A stretch of 64,000 nt of DNA. Origin: Escherichia coli. Lineage in GTDB: Bacteria > Pseudomonadota > Gammaproteobacteria > Enterobacterales > Enterobacteriaceae. The position numbers and the translations under genes were made by a program. The notes under the pieces are model-generated. The model was given only the letters and a program-made list of their open reading frames with translations. It ran no database searches and was not told the origin of the DNA. The stretch is from NCBI RefSeq assembly GCF_030013595.1, contig NZ_CP122768.1. The stretch is one strand, 5' to 3'. How positions within the stretch are numbered: the first letter of the stretch is position 1; every line of letters begins with the position of its first letter. Shown in pieces: positions 22,001 to 63,900 of this stretch.

Positions 22001-22030
22001 GGGAAGCAATAAGCTTCCCTTCTCTTTATT
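22001..22030. terminator. Hairpin terminator between convergent xis operon and AIPR gene
   Basis: GGGAAGC-aataa-GCTTCCC followed by T-rich tract. Confidence 0.45.
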
Positions 22031-23726
22031 TAGGTACGCTATCAACACTTTTGAGAATCGTTGATGTTAAAGGCTGCGACTTTAGTAAGTCTCGAGAAAT
22101 ATCCGGATCTGGTATAGCTATTTTTACTAAACTCTCAAGTTTTTCAAACCACTCCCCATCATTCATTGAGAATAAGTTATGAAGAGCTTCATTTTTATTT
22201 TTGAACCCCCAAGCCTTATAATTATTACCACAGTATTTTGACGCAGCAGTTAGAATATGCCAGCGTAATTTTGAATACTTCCCATCAAACCTCTTATTTG
22301 AGATAAGAGCCTTTAGCCTATACAAGCAATAGCAAGATATATAATAATCATCCTCGAGGGCATCGGAAGAGAAAACCTCATTAAGTAAGTCACCAGTTAA
22401 CCTATTTGGATAACGACTGGAATAATCTGGTCTCATCATAACAATAGCAGCATATGCTCGCGCAACTTCTCTGATATCAAATATGCGTACTGGAGCTATA
22501 CTTTCTGAACTATACTGCCCCTTTCTTCTCTCAAAATAAATTTTATTTCCTTCAATAGCACCTTTAGCATTAAAATAATGTTCTAATTCCCTTAATTTTT
22601 TTAGCGTTGAAATGAACTGTGCATCTTCAACTTTAGATTGTCTATTCGTAGCTCGTACAATGTCATCAAGGATCGCTGGCTCATCGGTTTCAATTAATTT
22701 AATCATTAAACTAACTGATTCATCTACTTGAATGTCTTTTGATATAAGAACATTAGACGTTTGACATCCATTAACAATTTGAAAATCTCGTATAAAAATT
22801 TCTTGCCCTGCAGGCCTCACGCTTGATGCAACTATTGTCACTCCATTATTCATTAAACCAAATCTTGCTTTTTTTCCATCAGTATCTAGTGTTCCTGCAA
22901 TTTCTGAATTTACGTCACCATCAATTCCCAGAAAATCTCTAACATTTTCTTCGAATAATTTTTTTCGAGGGTTTCCATTTTTGTCTTTAAGTATAGAATC
23001 AATAAAACTACGAGCTTTGACTGTAGCTACATAGGCATTATTAATATTAGGGGCCGCTGGGAATGGAGCATAGCCTATTGTAGGAAGTTTAGCTTCTATT
23101 GGACCTTCCGCAGCAAGCCAAAGCTCATGAATCATGTCTTTGTGAGCCATAATGAAGGATGTTTCATGTGAAAACCCGAGTGACTTTAAGCTTTTTTCAC
23201 CCGATGCAAATGCAGCTTTTATTTCTCTGGCCTCTGTATTTTGTGCAGCACTAAAAAAATATGCGTATAAGTCTGGAAGGCCATTTTTGACTCTGCCGAT
23301 ATTAGCAAATATCAAGTTGAACATTTTTTTAAAGTCCGCTAGATATTCACTGTGGGGTTGTTGTGGCGCTGGTGAAAGATAATCTCTTATTGACGCAATG
23401 TAAGAGTCTATTTCCTGTTTGCTCCACTTCTCCGATGACTTAGCTTGCGTGAATACTAATGAAACTTGAAACTCGCGACGTGAGTTTTGGAAAATCTCCT
23501 GAAGTTCTTCAGTTGAAAAAATGGCTCTGTCGTCTAAAAATAAAAATGCTCCATCAATACCAGGGTCCGGGCCTTCATACACAAGATCACTGACCTCAAC
23601 TTTGTCGCCTGAGTATTTTGAAAAAGCACAATAGTTCACAAACGCCTCAAAATTTTTGGTCTCCTCATAGGGCGCAGCGAATGCTTTGCAAAAGGCATCG
23701 AAATAAGATTTCGTGACTAAATGCAT
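22026..23726 (-). CDS. AIPR-family abortive infection protein
   Basis: 566 aa from ATG at 23726 (AAGGAG Shine-Dalgarno 7 nt upstream); FGLMNNGVTIVASSV ... FQIVNGCQTSNVL resembles the AIPR core; very AT-rich. The ORF-track N-terminal extension is translation of AT-rich upstream DNA. Confidence 0.7.
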   Translation of the reverse strand: MHLVTKSYFDAFCKAFAAPYEETKNFEAFVNYCAFSKYSGDKVEVSDLVYEGPDPGIDGAFLFLDDRAIFSTEELQEIFQNSRREFQVSLVFTQAKSSEKWSKQEIDSYIASIRDYLSPAPQQPHSEYLADFKKMFNLIFANIGRVKNGLPDLYAYFFSAAQNTEAREIKAAFASGEKSLKSLGFSHETSFIMAHKDMIHELWLAAEGPIEAKLPTIGYAPFPAAPNINNAYVATVKARSFIDSILKDKNGNPRKKLFEENVRDFLGIDGDVNSEIAGTLDTDGKKARFGLMNNGVTIVASSVRPAGQEIFIRDFQIVNGCQTSNVLISKDIQVDESVSLMIKLIETDEPAILDDIVRATNRQSKVEDAQFISTLKKLRELEHYFNAKGAIEGNKIYFERRKGQYSSESIAPVRIFDIREVARAYAAIVMMRPDYSSRYPNRLTGDLLNEVFSSDALEDDYYISCYCLYRLKALISNKRFDGKYSKLRWHILTAASKYCGNNYKAWGFKNKNEALHNLFSMNDGEWFEKLESLVKIAIPDPDISRDLLKSQPLTSTILKSVDSVPK

Positions 23727-23982
23727 AAAAACTCCTTTCTGAAATAAGATAAGTTTATTAGAAACAACAAGATAAAGATAAAGATAATAGTAATACAAGT
23801 TAAAGACATACTGCATCACATAAGTTGGTCAAGATCAATAAATCAATAAGGATCCCCTATGTTTTATGTATTGTTGATAATTCTATCACCTCTTACTTCT
23901 GGTCTAAGCGTAACCTACTCAAGAATGCCATTGAAAATGTCCACTGTTCGCTCAAAACAGACTGTCAGGGCTACGCAAGCTG

Positions 23983-25206
23983 TCAGGTAGATTCTGGGCC
24001 AGTACAAGTAACGATCGATTCAACTCTCTCCCACCATGCCTGATATGCTTTACGCTGTTCTTCTAGATAATCGCTCTTGTCATAAACCTGCCAAACCCCT
24101 GGCAGTTTATGGCCGAGCATTATTTCTGCAATATGAGGAGCAGTAAGATCAGAAAAGTTTGTTCGTGCTGTTCGCCTCAAATCATGAAGAGACCAATGAG
24201 GGAATTGATGCCCCAAACGCCTCCATGCGTACTGCATTAAATTGTAAGGCAGCGACTGCAATGATGTTCGACCAACGGGTTCCCTGCTTCCTTCCTTAGT
24301 AAAAAGCATATCGGAACCATTGTTCATAGAGATAGCGTTCTTTATAAGCTCCTCCACCGGTTCAATAATGGGCCTCTTTAGCGGTTCGCCTGTTATCTCT
24401 CCAGTCTTATGTCGTTCTGGTGGTACAGTCCATACCTTATTAATGAAATCAAAATCGCCCACCCTGGCAGTAATTAGCTCTGAACTACGGCAGCCAAAAT
24501 GCAGCAATAGCTTAATGAAGGCCCGGTATTTAGGAACCATTCGAGAACCATCGATCGCAGAATAAAGGATTTTAATTTCATCATGTGTCAGAAACCGTTT
24601 CTTCTGACCTTTACGGATATCCATATCTTTACCCGTGATATCCGACAGCGGGCGAGTTTCAATGAGCTTTCTCTTATACGCCCAGACATGGGCCTGCTTT
24701 GCGTTAATTAGCAATCGGTCTGCTATTGCTGGAGTCTTAGTGCTAAGAGGCTCCAGGACTTCTAACCAATCATGCAATGTAGCTGCATCGTGAGGGATAT
24801 TCCCGATTTTAGAGAACAGGTGCAGCTCAAACGAGCGGAGTATCTGTTCAGAACCTTTTTTATTTTTTACACAATATGCTTCATACCAGGCACGGATCAC
24901 AGACTCTACCGTCATGGCTTCAGTAGCTTTTCGTTTTTCAGCCTGCTTGACCAATCGTGGATTACGGTTTGACTCAAGTTCACCACGGAGACGGATAACT
25001 TCTTCTCTGGCCTCTTTTAATCCAGTTGCCGGGTAAGTTCCGATATCAAGACGCTCACCTTTCCCTGCCCATTGATAACGATATTGGAACACTACGCGAC
25101 CTTTCGGTGATACTCTGACAGACAGACCATCACGATCGGATTTAACCAAAACCTTATCACGTTCCTTTCCAACGACTGAACGCAACCACGCATCAGACAA
25201 CGCCAT
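23983..25206 (-). CDS. Tyrosine integrase (P4-type)
   Basis: 407 aa; C-terminal catalytic region HDLRRTARTNFSDL ... HIAEIMLGH ... VYDKSDY. Confidence 0.9.
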   Translation of the reverse strand: MALSDAWLRSVVGKERDKVLVKSDRDGLSVRVSPKGRVVFQYRYQWAGKGERLDIGTYPATGLKEAREEVIRLRGELESNRNPRLVKQAEKRKATEAMTVESVIRAWYEAYCVKNKKGSEQILRSFELHLFSKIGNIPHDAATLHDWLEVLEPLSTKTPAIADRLLINAKQAHVWAYKRKLIETRPLSDITGKDMDIRKGQKKRFLTHDEIKILYSAIDGSRMVPKYRAFIKLLLHFGCRSSELITARVGDFDFINKVWTVPPERHKTGEITGEPLKRPIIEPVEELIKNAISMNNGSDMLFTKEGSREPVGRTSLQSLPYNLMQYAWRRLGHQFPHWSLHDLRRTARTNFSDLTAPHIAEIMLGHKLPGVWQVYDKSDYLEEQRKAYQAWWERVESIVTCTGPEST

Positions 25207-25501: not shown

Positions 25502-25590
25502 AATTCTTTCTTCTTGAGTAAGCGGCATCGCGCCGCGCTTGTTGAAAACGAAAAATTGCGGCTATTTTACCCATCAACGGGGGGAGGCAA

Positions 25591-28680: not shown

Positions 28681-28767
28681 GCGAAGGTGGCGGAATTGGT
28701 AGACGCGCTAGCTTCAGGTGTTAGTGTCCTTACGGACGTGGGGGTTCAAGTCCCCCCCCTCGCACCA
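28681..28767 (+). tRNA. leuV: tRNA-Leu (CAG)
   Basis: 87-nt copy identical to the first. Confidence 0.95.
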
Positions 28768-48092: not shown

Positions 48093-51000
48093 ATGATGAA
48101 TAAATCCAATTTTGAATTCCTGAAGGGCGTCAACGACTTCACTTATGCCATCGCCTGTGCGGCGGAAAATAACTACCCCGATGATCCCAACACGACGCTG
48201 ATTAAAATGCGTATGTTTGGCGAAGCCACAGCGAAACATCTTGGTCTGTTACTCAACATCCCCTCTTGTGAGAATCAACACGATCTCCTGCGCGAACTTG
48301 GCAAAATCGCCTTCGTTGATGACAACATTCTCTCTGTATTCCACAAATTACGCCGCATTGGTAACCAGGCGGTGCACGAATATCATAACGATCTCGACGA
48401 TGCCCAGATGTGCCTGCGGCTAGGCTTCCGTCTGGCTGTCTGGTACTACCGTCTGGTCACCAAAGATTATGACTTCCCGGTGCCGGTATTTGTGTTGCCA
48501 GAACGTGGCGAGAACCTCTATCACCAGGAAGTGCTGACGCTAAAACAACAGCTTGAACAGCAGGTGCGAGAAAAAGCGCAAACTCAGGCAGAAGTCGAAG
48601 CGCAACAGCAGAAGCTGGTTGCTCTGAACGGCTATATCGCCATTCTGGAAGGCAAACAGCAGGAAACAGAAGCGCAAACCCAGGCTCGCCTTGCGGCGCT
48701 GGAAGCACAGCTTGCCGAGAAGAACGCGGAACTGGCAAAACAGACCGAACAGGAACGTAAGGCTTACCACAAAGAAATTACCGATCAGGCCATCAAGCGC
48801 ACACTCAACCTTAGCGAAGAAGAGAGTCGCTTCCTGATTGACGCGCAACTGCGTAAAGCAGGCTGGCAGGCCGATAGCAAAACCCTGCGCTTCTCCAAAG
48901 GCGCACGCCCGGAACCCGGCGTCAATAAAGCCATTGCCGAATGGCCGACCGGGAAAGATGAAACGGGTAATCAGGGTTTTGCGGATTATGTGCTGTTTGT
49001 CGGCCTCAAGCCCATCGCGGTGGTAGAGGCGAAACGTAAAAATATCGACGTTCCCGGCAAGCTCAATGAGTCGTATCGCTACAGCAAATGCTTCGATAAT
49101 GGCTTCCTGCGGGAAACCTTGCTTGAGCATTACTCGCCGGATGAAGTGCATGAAGCGGTGCCGGAGTATGAAACCAGCTGGCAGGACACCAGCGGCCAAC
49201 AACGGTTTAAAATCCCCTTCTGCTACTCGACCAACGGGCGCGAATACCGCGCAGCAATGAAAACTAAAAGCGGCATCTGGTATCGCGACGTGCGTGATAC
49301 CCGTAATATGTCGAAAGCCTTACCCGAGTGGCATCGCCCGGAAGAGCTGCTGGAAATGCTCGGCAGTGAACCGCAAAAACAGAATCAGTGGTTTGCCGAT
49401 AACCCTGGCATGAGCGAGCTGGGCCTGCGTTATTATCAGGAAGATGCCGTCCGCGCGGTTGAAAAGGCAATCGTCAAGGGTCAACAAGAGATCCTGCTGG
49501 CGATGGCGACCGGTACCGGTAAAACCCGTACCGCAATCGCCATGATGTTCCGCCTGATCCAGTCCCAGCGTTTTAAACGCATTCTCTTCCTTGTGGATCG
49601 CCGTTCTCTTGGCGAGCAGGCGCTGGGGGCGTTTGAAGATACGCGTATTAACGGCGACACTTTCAACAGCATTTTCGACATTAAAGGGCTGACGGATAAA
49701 TTCCCGGAAGACAGCACCAAAATTCACGTTGCCACCGTACAGTCGCTGGTGAAACGCACCCTGCAATCGGATGAACCGATGCCGGTGGCCCGTTACGACT
49801 GTATCGTCGTCGATGAAGCGCATCGCGGCTATATTCTCGATAAAGAGCAGACCGAAGGCGAGCTGCAGTTCCGCAGCCAGCTGGATTATGTCTCTGCCTA
49901 CCGTCGCATTCTCGATCATTTCGATGCGGTAAAAATCGCCCTCACCGCCACCCCGGCGCTGCATACGGTGCAGATTTTCGGTGAGCCGGTTTACCGTTAT
50001 ACCTACCGGACCGCAGTTATCGACGGTTTTCTGATCGACCAGGATCCGCCGATCCAAATCACCACCCGCAACGCCCAGGAGGGAGTTTATCTCTCCAAAG
50101 GCGAGCAGATAGAGCGCATCAGCCCGCAGGGGGAAGTGATCAACGACACCCTGGAAGACGATCAGGATTTTGAGGTCGCCGACTTTAACCGTGGCCTGGT
50201 GATCCCGGCGTTTAACCGCGCCGTCTGTAACGAACTCACCAACTACCTTGATCCGACCGGGTCGCAAAAAACGCTGGTCTTCTGTGTCACTAATGCTCAT
50301 GCCGATATGGTGGTGGAAGAGCTGCGTACCGCATTCAAGAAAAAGTATCCGCAACTGGAGCACGACGCGATCATCAAGATCACCGGTGATGCCGATAAAG
50401 ACGCGCGCAAAGTGCAGACCATGATCACCCGTTTCAATAAAGAGCGGCTGCCCAATATCGTGGTAACCGTCGACCTGCTGACGACCGGCGTCGATATTCC
50501 GTCGATCTGTAATATCGTGTTCCTGCGTAAAGTACGCAGCCGTATTCTGTACGAGCAGATGAAAGGCCGCGCCACGCGCTTGTGCCCGGACGTGAATAAA
50601 ACCAGCTTTAAGATTTTCGACTGTGTCGATATCTACAGCACACTGGAGAGCGTCGACACCATGCGTCCGGTGGTGGTGCGTCCGAAGGTGGAATTACAAA
50701 CGCTGGTCAACGAAATTACCGATTCAGAAACCTATAAAATTACCGAAGCGGATGGCCGTAGCTTTGCCGAGCACAGCCATGAACAATTGGTGGCGAAGCT
50801 CCAGCGCATCATCGGCCTGGCCACGTTTAACCGTGACCGCAGCGAAACGATAGATAAACAGGTGCGTCGTCTGGATGAGCTATGCCAGGACGCGGCGGGA
50901 GTGAACTTTAACGGCTTCGCCTCGCGCCTGCGGGAAAAAGGGCCGCACTGGAGCGCCGAAGTCTTTAACAAACTGCCTGGCTTTATCGCCCGTCTGGAAA

Positions 51001-51605
51001 AGCTGAAAACCGACATCAACAACCTGAACGATGCGCCGATCTTCCTCGATATCGACGATGAAGTGGTGAGCGTAAAATCGCTGTACGGTGATTACGACAC
51101 GCCGCAGGATTTCCTCGAAGCCTTTGACTCGCTGGTGCAACGTTCCCCGAACGCACAGCCGGCATTGCAGGCGGTGATTAATCGCCCGCGCGATCTCACC
51201 CGTAAAGGGCTGGTCGAGCTACAGGAGTGGTTTGACCGCCAGCACTTTGAGGAATCTTCCCTGCGCAAAGCATGGAAAGAGACGCGCAATGAAGATATCG
51301 CCGCCCGGCTGATTGGTCATATTCGCCGTGCAGCGGTAGGCGATGCGCTGAAACCGTTTGAGGAACGTGTCGATCACGCGCTGACGCGCATTAAGGGCGA
51401 AAACGACTGGAGCAGCGAGCAATTAAGCTGGCTCGATCGTTTAGCGCAGGCGCTGAAAGAGAAAGTGGTGCTCGACGACGATGTCTTCAAAACCGGCAAC
51501 TTCCACCGTCGCGGCGGGAAGGCGATGCTGCAAAGAACCTTTGACGATAATCTCGACAACCTGCTCGATAAATTCAGCGATTATATCTGGGACGAGCTGG
51601 CCTGA
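48093..51605 (+). CDS. hsdR: Type I restriction enzyme R subunit (EcoKI family)
   Basis: 1170 aa from MMNKSNFEFLKGV...; helicase motifs ATGTGKTR and DEAH (VVDEAHRG). Confidence 0.95.
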   Translation: MMNKSNFEFLKGVNDFTYAIACAAENNYPDDPNTTLIKMRMFGEATAKHLGLLLNIPSCENQHDLLRELGKIAFVDDNILSVFHKLRRIGNQAVHEYHNDLDDAQMCLRLGFRLAVWYYRLVTKDYDFPVPVFVLPERGENLYHQEVLTLKQQLEQQVREKAQTQAEVEAQQQKLVALNGYIAILEGKQQETEAQTQARLAALEAQLAEKNAELAKQTEQERKAYHKEITDQAIKRTLNLSEEESRFLIDAQLRKAGWQADSKTLRFSKGARPEPGVNKAIAEWPTGKDETGNQGFADYVLFVGLKPIAVVEAKRKNIDVPGKLNESYRYSKCFDNGFLRETLLEHYSPDEVHEAVPEYETSWQDTSGQQRFKIPFCYSTNGREYRAAMKTKSGIWYRDVRDTRNMSKALPEWHRPEELLEMLGSEPQKQNQWFADNPGMSELGLRYYQEDAVRAVEKAIVKGQQEILLAMATGTGKTRTAIAMMFRLIQSQRFKRILFLVDRRSLGEQALGAFEDTRINGDTFNSIFDIKGLTDKFPEDSTKIHVATVQSLVKRTLQSDEPMPVARYDCIVVDEAHRGYILDKEQTEGELQFRSQLDYVSAYRRILDHFDAVKIALTATPALHTVQIFGEPVYRYTYRTAVIDGFLIDQDPPIQITTRNAQEGVYLSKGEQIERISPQGEVINDTLEDDQDFEVADFNRGLVIPAFNRAVCNELTNYLDPTGSQKTLVFCVTNAHADMVVEELRTAFKKKYPQLEHDAIIKITGDADKDARKVQTMITRFNKERLPNIVVTVDLLTTGVDIPSICNIVFLRKVRSRILYEQMKGRATRLCPDVNKTSFKIFDCVDIYSTLESVDTMRPVVVRPKVELQTLVNEITDSETYKITEADGRSFAEHSHEQLVAKLQRIIGLATFNRDRSETIDKQVRRLDELCQDAAGVNFNGFASRLREKGPHWSAEVFNKLPGFIARLEKLKTDINNLNDAPIFLDIDDEVVSVKSLYGDYDTPQDFLEAFDSLVQRSPNAQPALQAVINRPRDLTRKGLVELQEWFDRQHFEESSLRKAWKETRNEDIAARLIGHIRRAAVGDALKPFEERVDHALTRIKGENDWSSEQLSWLDRLAQALKEKVVLDDDVFKTGNFHRRGGKAMLQRTFDDNLDNLLDKFSDYIWDELA

Positions 51606-51805: not shown

Positions 51806-53395
51806 ATGAACAATAACGATCTGGTCGCGAAGCTGTGGAAGCTGTGTGACAATCTGCGCGATGGCGGCGTTTCCTATCAAAACTACGTCAATGAACTCGC
51901 CTCGCTGCTGTTTTTGAAAATGTGTAAAGAGACCGGACAGGAAGCGGAGTACCTGCCGGTAGGCTACCGCTGGGATGACCTGAAATCCCGTATCGGTCAG
52001 GAGCAGTTGCAGTTCTACCGTAATCTGCTGGTACATCTGGGCGCCGACAATCAAAAGCTGGTGCAGGCGGTGTTCCAGAACGTCAACACCACCATTACCC
52101 AGCCGAAACAGTTGACCGAACTGGTCGGCAATATGGATTCACTGGACTGGTACAACGGCGCACACGGTAAGTCGCGCGATGACTTCGGCGATATGTACGA
52201 AGGGCTGTTGCAGAAAAACGCCAACGAAACCAAGTCTGGCGCGGGCCAGTACTTCACCCCGCGTCCGCTGATTAAAACCATTATTCATCTGCTGAAACCG
52301 CAGCCGCGTGAAGTGGTGCAGGACCCGGCAGCCGGTACGGCGGGCTTTTTGATTGAAGCCGACCGCTACGTTAAGTCGCAGACCAATGATCTGGACGACC
52401 TTGATGGCGACACGCAGGATTTCCAGATCCACCGCGCGTTTATCGGCCTCGAACTGGTGCCCGGCACCCGTCGTCTGGCGCTGATGAACTGCCTGCTGCA
52501 CGATATTGAAGGCAACCTCGACCACGGCGGCGCAATCCGTCTGGGCAACACCCTGGGCAGCGACGGTGAAAACCTGCCGAAGGCGCATATTGTCGCCACT
52601 AACCCGCCGTTTGGCAGCGCCGCGGGCACCAACATTACCCGCACCTTTGTTCACCCGACCAGCAACAAACAGCTGTGCTTTATGCAGCATATTATCGAAA
52701 CGCTGCATCCCGGCGGTCGTGCGGCGGTAGTGGTGCCAGATAACGTGCTGTTTGAAGGCGGCAAAGGCACCGACATCCGTCGTGACCTGATGGATAAGTG
52801 TCATCTGCATACCATCCTGCGTCTGCCGACCGGTATTTTTTACGCTCAGGGCGTGAAAACTAACGTGCTGTTCTTTACCAAAGGGACGGTGGCGAACCCG
52901 CATCAGGATAAGAACTGCACCGATGATGTGTGGGTGTACGACCTGCGTACCAATATGCCGAGCTTCGGCAAGCGCACGCCGTTTACCGACGAGCATTTGC
53001 AGCCGTTTGAGCGCGTGTATGGCGAAGATCCCCACGGTTTAAGCCCGCGCACTGAAGGTGAATGGAGTTTTAACGCCGAAGAGACGGAAGTTGCCGACAG
53101 CGAAGAGAACAAAAACACCGATCAGCATCTGGCTACCAGCCGCTGGCGCAAGTTCAGCCGCGAGTGGATCCGCACCGCGAAATCCGATTCGCTGGATATC
53201 TCCTGGCTGAAAGATAAAGACAGTATTGATGCCGACAACCTGCCGGAGCCGGATGTATTAGCGGCAGAAGCGATGGGTGAACTGGTGCAGGCGCTGGGCG
53301 AACTGGATGCGCTGATGCGTGAACTGGGGGCGAGCGATGAGGCCGATTTGCAGCGTCAGTTGCTGGAAGAAGCATTTGGTGGGGTGAAGGAATGA
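51806..53395 (+). CDS. hsdM: Type I restriction-modification M subunit (N6-adenine methyltransferase)
   Basis: 529 aa; NPPF motif (ATNPPFGSA). Confidence 0.95.
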   Translation: MNNNDLVAKLWKLCDNLRDGGVSYQNYVNELASLLFLKMCKETGQEAEYLPVGYRWDDLKSRIGQEQLQFYRNLLVHLGADNQKLVQAVFQNVNTTITQPKQLTELVGNMDSLDWYNGAHGKSRDDFGDMYEGLLQKNANETKSGAGQYFTPRPLIKTIIHLLKPQPREVVQDPAAGTAGFLIEADRYVKSQTNDLDDLDGDTQDFQIHRAFIGLELVPGTRRLALMNCLLHDIEGNLDHGGAIRLGNTLGSDGENLPKAHIVATNPPFGSAAGTNITRTFVHPTSNKQLCFMQHIIETLHPGGRAAVVVPDNVLFEGGKGTDIRRDLMDKCHLHTILRLPTGIFYAQGVKTNVLFFTKGTVANPHQDKNCTDDVWVYDLRTNMPSFGKRTPFTDEHLQPFERVYGEDPHGLSPRTEGEWSFNAEETEVADSEENKNTDQHLATSRWRKFSREWIRTAKSDSLDISWLKDKDSIDADNLPEPDVLAAEAMGELVQALGELDALMRELGASDEADLQRQLLEEAFGGVKE

Positions 53396-54760
53396 GTGCG
53401 GAGAAATTGCCGGAGGGGTGGGTTGAGTGTGAATTATCCGAACTCGGTAACATTGTTACAGGGAAAACTCCCAGTACCAAGGAGCCTTCCAATTTTGGAG
53501 GCAGCATTCCTTTCATTAAACCAGGCGATCTTGATCTCGGTGGCTATATCATGAATACCGCCGATACTCTGACGGAGAAAGGGTTATCTCTTGTCCCCAC
53601 TCTTCCTGCCAATTCAGTCGTTGTGACGTGTATTGGAAATTTAGGAAAAGTTGGAATTACCGCTAAAAAATCAGCATCTAATCAACAAATAAATGCATTG
53701 ATCCCGTCAGAAAAGCTAAATGTAAAATTTGTTTATTACCAAATTTTAACATTAAAACCATGGTTAGAGTCTCAATCAGCAGCTACTACAATTGCGATTG
53801 TGAACAAGAGCAAATTTTCTCAGGCACCATTTAAATTCCCGTCGCTTGCCGAACAAAAAATCATCACTGAAAAACTCGATACGCTGCTGGCGCAGGTAGA
53901 CAGCACCAAAGCACGTCTTGAGCAAATCCCACAAATCCTGAATCGTTTTCGTCAGGCTATTCTAGCTAATGCTGTGGAAGGAAAATTGACCGACGAATGG
54001 CGAGCCGGAAAATGTTATATTACAGAAATCAAAAAATATCTGATATTATTCAGAATGCTCAAGTCGGATTAGTTCGTTCAGCTTCAGATCAAAGCGAAAT
54101 ATGCACTCAAAAAATGAGAACGCCTTACATAAAAATGAATAACATTCACAATGTTCTCGGAACAAATTTAGAAAAACTCGCTTATGTCAACTGTGATAGC
54201 TATGAACTGGAAAAATATAGATTAAAAAATGGAGATTGGCTCTTTAATACACGAAATAGTTATGAGTTAGTTGGTAAATCCTGTGTCTGGAATGGATGTA
54301 GCAATGCTGTATATAATAATAATATATTAAGAGTTAGACTAAAAGAAAACTACAATTCTGTTTTTTTAGATTATTGGTTTCACTCGTTCTATGGAGTGAG
54401 CATGCTTAATAGTATTAAATCCGCAACAACAAATGTTGCTGCGATATATCAGAAAGAACTCTTAAGTAAAAGTGTTCCATTCCCCCCCTTCCCGAACAAG
54501 CCGAGATTGTTCGCCGCGTCGAACAACTCTTCGCCTACGCCGACACCATAGAAAAACAGGTCAACAACGCCTTAGCCCGCGTTAACAACCTGACGCAATC
54601 CATCCTGGCAAAAGCGTTCCGTGGTGAACTCACCGCCCAGTGGCGGGCCGAAAACCCGGATTTAATCAGCGGAGAAAACAGCGCCGCCGCGTTGCTGGAA
54701 AAAATCAAAGCTGAACGCGCAGCCAGCGGGGGTAAAAAAGCCTCGCGTAAAAAATCCTGA
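53392..54760 (+). pseudogene. hsdS: Type I specificity subunit HsdS with non-EcoKI TRDs, interrupted by two -1 frameshifts
   Basis: TRD1 and central repeat in frame of 53392 (stop at 54070-54072). TRD2 in ORF 53997..54551. Conserved C-terminus [51 protein letters not shown]...SRKKS in a third frame ending 54760. Frame changes coincide with A6 (54031-54036) and C7 (54482-54488) homopolymers. Confidence 0.6.
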
Positions 54761-54893
54761 TCATTATTTTCTGGCGCACCTTTCCGGTGCGCTTTTTATT
54801 ATTTTACGCCAATCATAACTCACGCAAATATATTTAAATCATTCCAGAAATTGCCTATTTTATTCTATTTTTAGCTGGACTTTCCCTGTATTT

Positions 54894-57972: not shown

Positions 57973-60900
57973 TCAGGAGGCGAGCACCTCCACCAGCACA
58001 TCCGTTGCCCAGCTCTCTTCACTGTTGACCACATTCCCTTCCTGACAAGCTTGATCCATTTTGACTAACTGGAAAGAAACGTCATCGCGGAAGTCAAAGT
58101 AATGCCATTGCGATGCAAAGTTGATACGCCAGTAGCCCATCCCCTGATCGAAGCGGATCTTCAATACCTGACCATCCTCAAAAGTCACCGTCAGTTTACG
58201 ATGGTGAGGGATATCGCGCGGCGAGTCGAACACCGCCAGTTCTACCGGCCTGCCCAGCGCAGCTGCAAACCACTGATCAGCGAAATCCTGAAAATCCGCT
58301 ATGCTCATCCAGTCATGAAAAGGCCGGTTACCGGGGCGATCTTTATCTTTAAACAGCGTATCCAGCGTCACTTCAGCGCCATCGGTCAGCTTTGTTTTTA
58401 GCGGTCTCAGAATTGATCCCAACAACGCCAGCGCAACCGGGTTTTGCAGATAGCGATCGGTATAGTGAACGCCGGTAATTCGCGTATTTTTCATCAGTGA
58501 CTGCGCTTCTTCATGGTCGTTAAACAGCACGTCCCAGAAGCGTTGCCCAAACTGCGACAACGGTCCATTCAACTGTTTGTGGATCTGGATGTCTTTGACC
58601 CGCTCGACAGCGTTGGCGGCTTTAGCTGGCAGAATAAACTCGCTCAGTTCTACCGTTTTATAACCGAGGCTACGCACTACCAGTTCGTCATTCAGGTGCC
58701 ACTCCGGCCCCGGAATCGTTGCCTGCTGACTGCGAGAGGCCAGCGTCATCACGCGATCGGCAAAGGTAACCTGGGCAACAATCGGTAATTGCAGATCCTG
58801 TTCAACATGGCACAGTCGCACACCCAGCGCAGTAAATTGCGATAGTTCATGCAACAGGTCCGGATCATCCACTCCCGCAGGAATAACAAGATCGACCTCG
58901 ACGTTGTCTTTTAGCCGATAGCTCTGAATAGCCGCGCGGAACTGACGGGCGTATAAATCCCACTCATTGGGCGCGCCAGTCATCCACAGGGTGAGCTTTT
59001 CAGCGCCTTCGTTAATCGCCCGGCGAATCGTATCGCCAATAGCGCCAGGGCAGTAGCGGGCATCCGGCAGCGAGAATGTCTCTTCATCCGGTAAACCGAT
59101 GTAATACGTGAAGTCATCGCCAAGCCAGGCCAGCGCCGCTTTGCGATCCAGCAAATCATGATCGTGGCGAGTCTGGGAATCAAGCAGGCATTCACTGCAT
59201 GCAGTATCACAATGGCGGCAGCCTAACTGTTTCACCATTCCCTGCAAAATAGCTTCAATGTGTACCGGTGCGCTGGAGGCAAAACCTGCACCACCGCTGA
59301 TCACATCATAAAGCTGTACGGCTAATACCGATTGCCCATCCTCCAGTCTGACCGGACGTACAGAATAGCCGAGTTCTGCGGTGGAGATACCCAGAACGCC
59401 CGCCAGCGCCTGACGCAGAGCAACCGCCAGAGTCATGGCGACAATCCGCCCCTCTTCTGTGTTATCTGGCAGATACTCGCCATTTTGTGGTTTGCGCAGA
59501 ACCATTTCAAAGACATCGGTGCGCGCCAGTGCGCCCAGGGTGACTTTCTTCACGAGTGCCGTCGAACCTGGGCAAATCAGACGATGATTCTGGCTGTCGC
59601 GGTCCGCTTTACCCGGACGCGGTGGATAGTGAGCTTCCATACTTTTCGGCGCATCATTTTCATTCAGCATCGACTCCGCACGGCCACAGCTCAGACACAA
59701 TGCATAACCGTGTCCACCTTCCCCCAGACTTTGCTGGAAAACATGCCCATCAGCCCCAGAAGCCATATAACCCATTAGCGGGTTAGGCAACGGTACGGGC
59801 TCTGCTTTAACAAAGACCCACGCGGGGACAACCGGGACGAATTTCATGGTTTCAATATTGTTCGTTACCGGAGCATGTGCATCGGTAACAAACCCGGCAG
59901 GCTGCAGCACCTGACGGCGATTATCCAGGATGATTTTTTCGCCGCAGGCGCTGTTGGAGCAAAAGAGCATCCCGGAACTGCTCATCCCCTCTTCATAGCC
60001 AATGGTCCCGCATTTATGACAGCGCCAGGCGCAATCCAGACGCTGGGCTTCATTGGTATCAGCATTAATGTTGTGCCAGTGCAGTGAGACACCGGCAGAG
60101 CGGAAGACACGGCCATCAAGAATGATCTCTGCTCCCGGTGCATATTCACGAATGGCAACACCGAGGTTACGGGAAGGTAATCCTTTATAACGGGAGACGT
60201 TATCTTCACGGTCCTTTTTATCACGACTTTTCTGCGATTTTTCGCGGATATAATCTTCCATCGTGAAGTTATCAAACGTCACTACATCTGTCGGGAAACC
60301 GTATCCCGGCAGGAAGGTTCTGGCAGCCAGATCGCGCAGCAGATACTCGCCACAGTGCCGTTTCTTCTCCAGCTCTATGCGCTTACGATAAGGCGTTTGC
60401 GGCTGCGACTCACGCTCCTGGGTCACGAGATCGCGATAAACGGAGAGCCACCGCTGTTGCAGGAAGGTGATCGCGTTGATTGTTTTGTCCCGCAGATGTT
60501 CGGCTCTTGCGCCATGCAATGCCGTACCTTTCACCAGCCGTTCCAGCGCCGTGTCGATATCAAGAACAGAGCGTTCCAGCCAGACTTTGAAGCGTTCGCA
60601 TTTTGACTCCCCGTCATCTTCACCGAAAAACCAGAGGCTATCGAGGCTGGTTTTCTCTTTATCGGTTTCGCCAATAACGTTACATAAAAAGTCGGACAGT
60701 AATAATGCATTGACGTGACGTTGCACCAGTCGGGCGGAGTTCATCGCGACCATGGGTGCCGGGATCATGGTTTCAAACGGCCAGAGTGGGTTGGCAAAAA
60801 CCTGTTGGTCGTGTGGGTTACCCTTACATAGGGTGTAAGAGATCGCGCGCGATTCTTTACTACGCCCGGCTCGCCCGGCGCGCTGTAAATAGTTGGCCGG

Positions 60901-63900
60901 ATGTGGCGGTACGTTGTTCATTACCACCGCAGTAATGCCCCCGATATCAACCCCCATTTCCATGGTGGTGGAACAGTTGAGAACATTTAGTTGCCCATTC
61001 TTGAACATCTTTTCATAGCTTTGCAGACGTTCTGACGACTGCTGGGCAGAGTGCTCGGCAGTGCGATAGTAGAAACCGCCTTCCACGACACGATCGTTGA
61101 TGTCTGTCCAGACGTTTTCCGACCGCAATTGTGCGATCAGCGGATCATTGCTGACCCAGTCGCGTGCTTTTGCCAGACCCTCTGCGTAGTCTTCCTGTGA
61201 ACGATCCAGCTTCCAGATTTCCGGCATGGTGACTTTCTGCGCGACAAAAGTGTCATATTGCGCCTGGGTAAGATGCTCGAACGAAATATGGGTAGGCAGA
61301 TAAGGGGTTAAGCCTTTAAAAGCCGTATCCAGGATTTTATTGGTTACCGGGCAAATCCAGGCATCCGTGATTAAAGAAAAAGTCATATGCTCTTTCGGTA
61401 AATAAAAACGGTTGCCATCGGGTTTCAGTACTGCAAGCGGTCCGGTAAGTTGGGCCCATGCTTCTTTCAGCCATGTATTGATAATATCAATAGTCGCCGT
61501 ATTGACGGTTTTGAATCCAGCCCCCAGCATCAGTAACTTCGCTAAACGATGGGATACGTTGCCATTACGAATTTGAGGCCAGCGTCTGTTCTGATTATCT
61601 TCAGGATCTTTTGATTCCGGGTTACGGACGAATTTTGATGAAAAACGGCTACCAATCCAGTTTTTCAGCTCATCATCCAGCTGTGTGAAGTTGCTTTCGC
61701 GAACATAAAGATCCAACGTAACCTTGAGAAAATCGCGCCAGTCATCCAGCGTTAATCCTTTTTCCTGCCAGTGCAAGGGGCTCTTATGTATTTTCTCCAG
61801 CCCCTGGTAACCAACCTGAACCAGCCCCTGTGTTTCCAGGCTGTTAGTCCGTTTAGGGCGACGCATGAATTCCCGGAACAACAACATTTCCGAAAGCTTT
61901 AGTGGCCCGCCGTTTTTATTAAACACTTCAGGCTGCAAATAGTGGTTATATTTCAGTACCGGGCCACGGATATCGGCTTTATCTTTAAGCTCGTTAACCA
62001 TTTCTGTCCAGGTGCGGGATACCAGGGTAGTTGCTGCTTTTCCACCGGTTGCAGCCTGATAAGCCTGTTCAAGCTGTTCAGCCTGCGCTTGTGACAATTT
62101 CGCCTGGTCTGGCATTCCCCAGCTTCGATATTCTTCTGCCTGCTCACGGGCTTGCTTCGCCCTGGCCGCTAATTTTTCCAGATCGGCATTGGCATTCGGC
62201 GCCGTGGACGTTTGCGTCCGTTGATGCCAGCTCAGAATTTCGACTACGCTTCCGCGTAAGAGACTGCGTTCTGCTTCTTGCTGCATACGCACCGCCATTC
62301 GAGCTGTACCTTGTCGACTGTCCGTAAAGGTAATGAGTCGACGTCCTCGCCCTGGCAACGAATCTGGTCCGACGCCCTCTTTGCCTTCATCACTGGTAAA
62401 GTCCTGACAATACTCAAGAACGGTAGGCACGATGTTAGTAACGTAAAATGGCCCACCTAATAATGCACGCCGGAAGGGTTGTTTCCCACTCATGCCTCGG
62501 TAGCCACAGCCGCTGGCGCTACAAACCTTTTTATCATTAATAATCAGCGGAATGCTGTCATTATTAATAACGCCAATACGGCGCGTCTGACGGTCGAGGC
62601 GTTGTAGGGTATAGCCTGTCTCGCTGGTCTCTCCTGCGGCAATAATCAACGGAGGCAGGAAACCGTTCTCTTTTTCGACTTTTTCCTCTGTAGTGTCATG
62701 TTCAACAGGTACTTCATCCTGCAAGGAGAACTCATCGCCACCTTTATTTTCCCATTGGACAAGTTTGCCCTTTTTGTCCTGCGCCAGAAGATGAGGCTCA
62801 TTACAATCATTACAGAACGCCACTTCGTAGACAGGGCTTCCACAGTCGCAATTTTGTCGCTGGTTCACATACACATAGCCAAAGGGCCAGCCTTTTTCGA
62901 GCGGTGTACCGTGCTTTAATCTGCAATCTTTATCAACACAAGCCCATATTCCTTGGGTATTACGCTGGAAGATATGCGCCCTGACTTTAAGAAATGCGGG
63001 ATCCTTTGCATTAGGTTGAGTCCCTGAACAGACATCGATCCAACGCAGTACTTCCTGCTGGCTGTAATGCTGTTTTGTCAGCGCATTTAACCGCTGCGTC
63101 ATCTCATCCAGTTTCATTGGATTAGGTTGGCTAACCAACATTTCACGTATGTAACGCGCTTCGGGGGAGTGCGTAAGCGCATAAAAGCGCTCAGGACTTA
63201 TCCCTTTAATTTTATTATCATTTTTATCTTTTAGATCCAGATCAGGTATTTGCTCTATTTCGTCTAACGGAACAGAAACGTTTTTGGATGGTTCCAGTTC
63301 AGGAATCACCCGACTTCCGTCCAGAACATCGATGCGCTCCTGCGGGATACCGGATAATTCAGAGAGAAATTTTTTCAGCTGTTTTTCGGCGTCGCTGCCG
63401 GCAATGGTCGCAGAGGTCGCTACAAAGCGCACATCATCTGGCGTCACGCCAAACGCTGTCATCACACGACGCAGCTGGAGTGCCAGTTCAGCGGCCTGCG
63501 ACCCGACATAGGTATGCGCTTCATCCAGTACAATCCAGCGTAGTGATTTTTGTGCTTTGGATTGCTGGATAATCGGGGCGTCGACCTGGCGAACCATCAT
63601 ATATTCCAGCATCGTGCCGTTGGTCACCAGAATCGGGGCAGGCTCCAGACGCATCTTTTCACGGGATAAGACTTCATTTGGTCTATTATCCTGCACTGTT
63701 TTCATTTTTGCGTGGAGCTCTTCTGTATTTCCGTTATACAAGCAGTAGCGGATCCCAGTACCAAAACCACGCGTCCAGGCATCCAGACGCTCGCGCTGTG
63801 AATTAATCAAGGCGTTCAATGGATAGAGAAAAAGGGCTCGGACACCAACCAACGGATTGTTGCCATTTTCATGCAGTTCCCGGTAAAGATCTTCCAGCAC

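Follow-up and report, generated by a model that had tools for sequence, protein, structure and literature searches.

A probably decaying Type IA hsdS with two homopolymer frameshifts in the immigration-control region of Escherichia coli

In the 64,000-nucleotide stretch of Escherichia coli DNA analysed here (the window), the gene order mrr, hsdR, hsdM, hsdS, symE, mcrB, mcrC, obtained from an open reading frame (ORF) map and annotated relatives, is that of the E. coli immigration-control region (Table 1). Both hsdR and hsdM are intact; hsdR is free of indels against NZ_CM149870.1, a genome that carries an intact hsdS, and the exact HsdM protein is found on 67 public contigs. The hsdM stop codon overlaps the start of hsdS in the motif ATGA (53392-53395), and directly 3' of hsdS lies a terminator-like hairpin, recognized by consensus match only, with an 8-bp stem containing six G-C pairs and followed by TTTTATTATT.

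Table 1. Coordinates of the hsd features in the window
Feature	Position	Strand	Remarks
hsdR, intact	48093..51605	+	1170 aa; 100% identical to HsdR of NZ_CM149870.1
hsdM, intact	51806..53395	+	529 aa; 97% identical to EcoKI HsdM
hsdS segment 1	53392..54036	+	TRD1 ~53392-53841, central conserved region ~53842-54006, then 10 more codons
Broken frame-0 ORF of hsdS	ATG 53392 to stop 54070-54072	+	226 aa
A6 run, first -1 frameshift	54031..54036	+	A7 in the intact allele
hsdS segment 2 (TRD2), -1 frame	54037..54481	+	mechanical ORF 53997-54551; AT-rich, 31% G+C
C7 run, second -1 frameshift	54482..54488	+	C8 in the intact allele
hsdS segment 3 (C-terminal conserved region and tail), third frame	54489..54760	+	TGA stop 54758-54760
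Terminator-like hairpin and T-run	54773..54803	+	directly 3' of hsdS; consensus match only

Frame analysis of the window revealed that three frames are needed to read hsdS (53392-54760, + strand), with one -1 shift at the A6 run and a second at the C7 run, in agreement with a preliminary description of this DNA. All three segments are HsdS, and the NCBIfam model of the EcoKI-type S subunit, PRK09737, matches the first fragment with E=1e-45 and the second with E=1e-19; segment 3, which lacks a start codon, has no called ORF. The frame-0 product corresponds to residues 1-214 of a 456-aa protein followed by a 12-residue frameshift tail, and includes the entire central conserved region. The same description had predicted that A7 and C8 would restore the frame, which proved exactly right, as in three complete E. 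coli genomes the gene reads through as one 456-aa ORF, where the C8 codons TTC CCC CCC CTT encode F-P-P-L at the junction of the second target-recognition domain (TRD2) with the C-terminal conserved region. The frameshifted pattern is not due to chance.

Only three differences separate the allele of these genomes from that of the window: A7, C8 and a synonymous T/C site at position 54128. An exact protein look-up placed the intact 456-aa protein on 97 public contigs, and the intact form accounts for ~85% of the contigs counted. Alignment of the 456-aa protein with EcoKI HsdS gave 47% identity overall, with a near-identical central conserved region, divergent TRDs and complete identity from E369 to the C-terminus, which bears out the earlier observation that neither TRD is that of EcoKI. 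PRK09737 matches the full-length protein with E=1.6e-140 at 469 bits, under the curated equivalog cutoff of 662, and the best match among solved structures is EcoKI HsdS (2Y7C/2Y7H, E=5e-94). TRD1 occurs in two other E. coli alleles, while TRD2 is rare: in a search of 5.8 billion proteins its next-best relative is 55% identical, and no relative above that identity and no characterized enzyme was found. Classically, a Type I family is defined by subunit complementation, here with EcoKI HsdM and HsdR. From the locus and operon order with the hsdM-hsdS overlap, and from the EcoKI-like conserved regions around two variable TRDs, hsdS is predicted to encode a Type IA (EcoKI-family) S subunit with a rare combination of TRDs.

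The exact 226-aa product of the A6 form is present on 9-13 public contigs, comprising several NCBI assemblies and Logan runs. A6 was observed in at least 10 independent assemblies or runs, every time with the synonymous C at 54128 and at loci otherwise identical to the window, among them GCA_021649405.1, GCA_008326365.1, GCA_049544575.1, GCA_036246625.1 and GCA_036246605.1 as well as ERR4421133, ERR4421135, ERR14362488 and SRR19716120. Over 8.75 kb, the sister assembly GCA_008326365.1 shows no base substitution against the window and differs from it solely by C8 in place of C7; GCA_021649405.1, likewise without substitutions over 8.75 kb, differs by C8 and by a 1-nt deletion of its own in mcrC (CCC to CC). 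Exact-protein look-ups detected none of the tract variants A5, A8 and A9. Because at least 10 independent assemblies share the linked synonymous SNP, A6 is a real, clonally inherited lesion that marks a lineage, and the A-run data fit one clonal event with no evident reversion. Sequencing error, one of the readings offered in the preliminary description, thus fails for A6; C7 in combination with A6 is private to the window.

At the C-run, lengths of C7, C8 and C9 are found on otherwise identical haplotypes, C8 being the state of most assemblies. C7 occurs on the A7 background in SRR14510402 and ERR4899789, and C9, which is out of frame, on the A7 background in ERR5386556; these assemblies are apparently of short-read origin. 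Since the three lengths share identical backgrounds, at least three independent C-run events have taken place, against one SNP in the gene, and in the haplotype table the remaining A/T runs of these loci that are 7 nt or longer are invariant. Exact-protein look-ups found A7/C9 but none of C6, C10 or C9 on the A6 background, and exact look-ups in a collection of 15 billion proteins found the A6+C7 combination nowhere outside the window, the four possible middle-fragment products of 184, 179, 145 and 138 aa being unmatched. The C-run is thus a mutational hotspot, although it falls under the usual 9-nt criterion for phase variation. In E. coli, indel rates climb exponentially with homopolymer length (PMC8510543).

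We consider it probable that the window holds a decaying Type IA hsdS in which A7 to A6 is an inherited truncation and C7 a later slippage or an error, leaving the strain r-m- for this system. Strand slippage in the A7 run, with loss of one base, would have truncated HsdS past TRD1 and the central conserved helix, and the C8 to C7 contraction at the TRD2/C-terminal junction would fall in a stretch already out of frame. Without full-length S, the intact HsdM and HsdR could not be directed to the bipartite site recognized originally, and loss of both restriction and modification, with hsdR and hsdM retained, is the most likely state of the strain. Since restriction depends on HsdS as well, a Type I system can safely be lost through this subunit. 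The pseudogene option of the preliminary description thereby becomes the main reading: the intact allele is widespread, A6 is derived and inherited within a lineage, and the window carries a further lesion, so that reversion would need two independent +1 events and the gene is effectively a pseudogene in this genome.

The C7 run of the window would be either a second slippage event, at a tract that is demonstrably unstable, or a G/C-homopolymer consensus error of one assembly. The latter, by which the strain is truly A6/C8 like its sisters, is a serious possibility that falls somewhat short of even. It is favored by the C8 run of the otherwise identical sister assemblies and by a second private contraction in a G/C run, the pattern expected of long-read consensus error: at 25579-25584 the window has G6, whereas G7 is found in eight other genomes. 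The adjoining integrase is too widespread to serve as an anchor for sister genomes, and the six loci reached via it all have G7 but are not proven sisters. Conversely, the tract is genuinely variable elsewhere (C7 twice, C9 once), making a real C7 plausible, and three C8 runs in tRNA-Leu genes are correct in the window, which fits selection-filtered real mutations better than random consensus error. The best complete-genome match to the prophage half of the window covers 79% of it at 98.7% identity; ~20 kb of prophage compared at 98.6-99.0% identity showed no isolated homopolymer indels, though this level does not amount to a near-identical control.

Slipped-strand phase variation, in which the C-run and perhaps the A-run reversibly switch the system on and off or alter its specificity in the manner of NgoAV, is an unlikely alternative. 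Phase-variable hsdS genes with simple sequence repeats (SSRs) have been defined by a mononucleotide tract that spans 9 nt or more, lies inside the ORF and falls between the TRD coding regions (PMC7383803). The two tracts flank TRD2, and the A-run, 10 codons past the central conserved region, lies between the TRDs, the usual SSR site in hsdS (PMC7383803), while the C-run, past TRD2, lies outside that interval. Variation in tract length among otherwise identical strains is present, with the recurrent C7/C8/C9 changes at the C-run and one event (A6/A7) at the A-run, and tracts of less than 9 nt still phase-vary in some species (PMC7383803). However, the tracts of the ON state are just 7 and 8 nt long, against the 9 nt required in that REBASE survey; the window has A6 and C7, and the only 9-nt tract, C9, is an out-of-frame variant. 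The predominance of intact contigs and the single, apparently unreverted A6 event also speak against switching, E. coli Type I systems have been described as non-phase-variable (PMC8287963), and a shift at the C-run, coming after TRD2, loses the C-terminal conserved helix and yields no clean half-S. The observed frequency is moreover compatible with ordinary homopolymer mutability and tolerated loss. Phase variation, also raised in the preliminary description, is accordingly not upheld for the A-run, where a single clonal event fits; for the C-run, with its three lengths and an intact state of 8 nt, the data are suggestive at most.

It is similarly doubtful that the 226-aa product, consisting of TRD1 and the central helix, dimerizes and binds two HsdM subunits to act as methylase or restriction enzyme on a symmetric (palindromic) target that is new. 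The resemblance to half-HsdS proteins noted earlier is confirmed for the architecture, as the product has one TRD and one complete conserved coiled-coil helix and ends before TRD2. Its truncation, 10 residues past the central conserved region, matches that of active engineered and natural half-HsdS, alignment identifies the two conserved regions, central and C-terminal, as homologous repeats, and hsdM, which overlaps the hsdS start, is intact. Half-S proteins are known to be functional in other families: that of S. aureus CC398-1 methylates ACCN5GGT (PMC6158711), and the 208-aa HsdS1 of NgoAV recognizes GCAN8TGC (PMC9577141). Against such a function here, no Type IA precedent was found in literature covering NgoAV, EcoDXXI and S. 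aureus CC398-1, the long Type IA C-terminal region is missing from the fragment, which also bears an out-of-frame tail, and the engineered half-S proved unstable and a poor restriction enzyme (PMC6158711); the A6 lineage, with no SNPs in 8-20 kb, is too young for a test of purifying selection. An AlphaFold model of a linked half-S dimer was set aside because it mimics normal HsdS by construction and cannot discriminate between the hypotheses. A combination of the two ideas, by which slippage-prone runs bracketing TRD2 toggle the clone between a full-length bipartite state (A7/C8), a palindromic half-HsdS state (A6) and an off state (C7/C9), seems highly improbable; if true, this three-state toggle would give E. 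coli, a species considered to lack phase-variable Type I systems, an epigenetic or defence switch of the NgoAV kind, driven by SSRs.

That the whole pattern is a sequencing or assembly artefact, the true gene being intact A7/C8 with both lengths miscalled, is hardly credible. The window differs from its nearest complete relative, NZ_CM149870.1, by 11 SNPs and three indels over 38.5 kb, with no other gene disrupted, and, in favor of an artefact, each of the three indels is a homopolymer 1 nt shorter in the window; G6 at 25579-25584 and the pairing of C7 with A6 occur in the window alone, and the exact 226-aa fragment is also found on a 5.58-Mb contig, so that the window may derive from a long-read assembly. 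The recurrence of A6 with its linked SNP contradicts this, and with A6 confirmed elsewhere, hsdS is broken at any length of the C-run. The intact tRNA-Leu C8 runs, together with all 7-8-nt A/T runs, which are likewise intact in the window, and the occurrence of C7 and C9 in other, apparently short-read assemblies argue in the same direction. Recoding, by which some full-length HsdS would still arise through transcriptional slippage or -1 ribosomal frameshifting at the runs, is next to negligible: slippage at a low level is possible on A-runs and C-runs, but two independent events would be needed, the zero-frame sequence C-AAA-AAA-T departs from the canonical X-XXY-YYZ heptamer, the intact allele requires no recoding, and the lesions are derived.

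With a decaying hsdS as the preferred reading, the Type I barrier of the immigration-control region is very probably off in this genome, affecting its predicted transformability, phage susceptibility and methylome. At the boundary between TRD2 and the conserved region, the C8 run is a hotspot at which inactivation recurs in an E. coli clone that is in circulation, and the locus provides a small, concrete case of Type I specificity genes decaying or possibly toggling. For homopolymer frameshifts in hsdS more generally, sister assemblies should be checked before the shifts are dismissed as sequencing errors. Should half-S formation or switching prove true, NgoAV-type behavior would be extended to the classical EcoKI family.

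Among known systems, the closest are EcoKI, the Type IA system of E. coli K-12, and the Type IA systems allelic to it. EcoKI occupies the same locus with the gene order mrr-hsdR-hsdM-hsdS-symE-mcrBC and shares the near-identical HsdM and essentially identical central and C-terminal conserved regions of HsdS; the window allele differs in both TRDs, of which TRD2 is AT-rich, and in being frameshifted twice. NgoAV of Neisseria gonorrhoeae has a poly-G tract in hsdS that yields either a truncated HsdS1 or a fused full-length HsdS (PMC9577141, PMC7383803), and the likeness consists in a mononucleotide tract after TRD1 and the central region that sets a half-S (~210-226 aa) against the full-length protein, and in a tract length that varies between isolates (PMC9577141, PMC7383803). 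NgoAV, however, is from another Type I family, with two forms that are proven active and differ in specificity, whereas in the window allele the tracts are shorter, full length is the common state, the A-run change looks single-clonal and a second tract follows TRD2. Engineered or accidental half-HsdS proteins (M½S of S. aureus CC398-1, truncations of EcoDXXI and EcoR124I) are likewise cut directly past the central conserved region; with one TRD and one coiled-coil helix, they dimerize and recognize palindromic targets (PMC6158711 and references 28, 29 and 31 therein). They belong to other Type I families, and their verification came from methylome or restriction assays, whereas the window product is a predicted Type IA fragment with a frameshift tail. 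Lastly, in the ordinary homopolymer-frameshift pseudogenes of E. coli restriction genes, 1-base slippage deletions in short runs kill a dispensable defence gene, just as a sister assembly has also lost mcrC by its CCC to CC deletion; from these the window hsdS differs in nothing essential, the recurrent +1/-1 change at the C8 run being its only unusual feature.

Three-frame translation of the hsdS gene in the window revealed that frame 0 encodes 214 HsdS residues followed by a 12-residue tail and a stop at 54070-54072, that the HsdS reading resumes in the -1 frame past the A6 run at 54031-54036 (ISDIIQNAQ...SVPFPP), and that past the C7 run at 54482-54488 it proceeds in a further -1 frame (...SRKKS) to end with TGA at 54760. 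The NCBIfam EcoKI-type S subunit model PRK09737 matched both fragment 1, the 226-aa product carrying the first target-recognition domain (TRD1), the conserved central region plus the tail (E=1e-45), and fragment 2, the TRD2 part (E=1e-19). The gene coordinates in the preliminary description, and its proposal that A7 and C8 would restore the frame, proved exact, A7/C8 copies in three complete genomes being uninterrupted 456-aa ORFs.

Features at and near the hsd locus (window coordinates unless stated)
Feature	Position	Strand	Remarks
Prophage	1-25437		left part of window; terminase, portal, capsid genes
AIPR-family protein	22026-23819	minus	in prophage
Tyrosine integrase	23983-25206	minus	in prophage
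hsdR	48093-51605		upstream of hsdM and hsdS; intact
hsdM	51806-53395		intact; stop overlaps hsdS start by ATGA
hsdS	53392-54760		downstream of hsdR, hsdM; three-frame translation
mcrC CCC->CC deletion	L015 ~7514 (= window 57525)		retrieved locus L015; also in L031
DEAD/DEAH-box helicase gene	57973-64000, runs off window	minus	YjiV_N and MZB domains
Doubly annotated intact hsdS	L001 6001-7371 = NZ_CP151004.1 4044245-4045615		retrieved locus L001; same in NZ_CM149870.1, NZ_CM149862.1

A megablast search of 5,426 complete E. coli genomes located the allele in three (NZ_CP151004.1, NZ_CM149870.1 and NZ_CM149862.1), whose 1371-nt copies differ from the 1369-nt window gene only by A7 versus A6, by C8 versus C7 and, at 54128, by a synonymous T/C; these copies are free of stops and frameshifts. 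RefSeq/PGAP splits this intact gene into two "partial" pseudogenes, in frame with each other and overlapping (aa 1-160 and aa 152-456); the split seems to be an artefact that the chimeric TRD combination causes in annotation. Upon alignment, the 456-aa HsdS is near-identical to EcoKI HsdS in the central conserved region and identical from residue 369 to the C-terminus, while both TRDs are unrelated (overall identity 47%). Based on these conserved regions, the best PDB match (EcoKI HsdS, 2Y7C, E=5e-94), an HsdM 97% identical to that of EcoKI and an HsdR that a genome with intact hsdS carries in identical form, sequence comparison identifies the gene as a Type IA allele occupying the classical mrr-hsdRMS-symE-mcrBC locus. 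TRD1 is common to this and two other E. coli alleles; TRD2 is rare, occurring in only three of the complete genomes, with a next-best relative 55% identical among 5.8 billion proteins. TRD2 is also AT-rich (G+C 31% versus 56% in the adjoining conserved region), and the C-run lies exactly at the junction of the two. Many public short-read contigs with this allele stop within TRD2 (54317-54423, near 'tatataataataataatat'), probably through coverage or assembly dropout, giving rise to numerous "partial" HsdS proteins in databases.

The exact 226-aa A6 product was found on 9-13 contigs of the public protein collection, among them contigs from several NCBI assemblies and from independent runs assembled in Logan; a 5.58-Mb contig likewise has an entry for it. 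All recovered A6 loci carry C at 54128 and are otherwise identical to the window. These independent occurrences and the constant linked C rule out a miscall, and A6 is a heritable lineage marker. Sisters with long enough contigs (GCA_021649405.1, GCA_008326365.1, GCA_049544575.1, SRR19716120) have C8, so that their hsdS consists of a 226-aa N-terminal and a 249/254-aa C-terminal ORF.

Constructed tract variants were looked up as exact proteins, and both the C7 (386 aa) and C9 (398 aa) forms were found on the A7 background.

Haplotypes at the two hsdS runs and position 54128
A-run	C-run	54128	Source	Flanks
A7	C8	T	GCA_026547945.1, GCA_002925925.1	window-like
A7	C7	T	SRR14510402, ERR4899789	window-like
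A7	C8	C	SRR30668523 (contig common to 6 samples)	window-like
A7	C9	C	ERR5386556	window-like
A6	C8	C	four assemblies	window-like
A6	C7	C	window alone	

Over 20.6 kb ERR5386556 has zero base substitutions relative to the window and differs only at the two runs; for SRR14510402 the only differences over 11.2 kb are A7 and T at 54128. To account for the haplotypes, at minimum a single SNP, a single change in the A-run and three independent C-run events are needed, of which two are -1 and one is +1; other runs of at least 7 nt in the same loci are invariant. Thus, the C-run is a slippage hotspot in the population, although the intact protein dominates (97 contigs versus 9-13 with A6, 2 with C7 and 2 with C9). 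The pattern fits an indel rate that in E. coli depends exponentially on run length (PMC8510543), together with tolerated loss of hsdS.

Exact protein look-ups in other assemblies found the A6+C7 combination nowhere beyond the window. Over 8.75 kb the sisters and the window differ by no base substitution; the C-run is the sole difference in GCA_008326365.1, and GCA_021649405.1 adds its own mcrC deletion. The window has a second private contraction, G7 to G6 at 25579-25584 (G7 in 8/8 other genomes examined), and the two may reflect either genuine slippage or an error in a long-read consensus. Sequencing error, offered in the preliminary description beside pseudogene and phase variation, accordingly fails for A6 and could apply to C7. 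A generally error-prone assembly is unlikely, since three C8 runs in tRNA-Leu genes and all 7-8 nt A/T runs agree with relatives, and the 11 SNPs and 3 indels separating the window from NZ_CM149870.1 over 38.5 kb disrupt no further gene. One of these differences is T in NZ_CM149870.1 versus G in the window at 28750, in the T-arm (GGTTCAAGTCC) of the third tRNA-Leu copy. As we take the window's G to be the canonical form, some differences may be errors in the reference.

The G6 run is intergenic, directly downstream of the yjjG 3' end and 141 nt from the prophage junction. The prophage adjoins yjjG, at a place taken in NZ_CM149870.1 by prfC-osmY and nearby genes; its closest complete-genome match reaches 79% coverage at 98.7% identity. 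The A6 sisters GCA_021649405.1 and SRR19716120 harbor the additional deletion splitting mcrC, intact in the window, into 222 + 108 aa, and in this sub-lineage the restriction genes of the locus are eroding further. The very large helicase gene (2113 aa in relatives) is intact in the window and relatives, while its K-12 counterpart yjiV is a pseudogene.

Both -1 lesions are derived, and that at A6 is inherited. With no S subunit of full length, neither the methylase nor the endonuclease would find the original bipartite site, and the strain would be r-m- for this Type I system. Since reversion would need two +1 events, we infer that hsdS is effectively a pseudogene.

Two minority readings would grant the gene a function. 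The 226-aa product might be a functional half-HsdS, as it has the architecture of the engineered S. aureus CC398-1 half-HsdS, which stops immediately past the central conserved region and is active on a palindromic target (PMC6158711), but the literature consulted on half-HsdS systems yielded no Type IA example. Alternatively, the runs might mediate phase variation, but neither reaches the tract length of at least 9 nt used as criterion in a REBASE survey (PMC7383803), and Type I systems of E. coli have been described as not phase-variable (PMC8287963). On these grounds the gene is filed as a Type IA pseudogene with a slippage hotspot rather than a demonstrated phasevarion or functional half-S. 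The preliminary description is upheld in its observation of a double frameshift and partly supported in its interpretation, which loses sequencing error for A6. The closest mechanistic analogue is NgoAV, whose poly-G tract after TRD1 determines which HsdS is made: a 208-aa half-HsdS that is active on GCAN8TGC, or a full-length fusion of other specificity (PMC9577141, PMC7383803).
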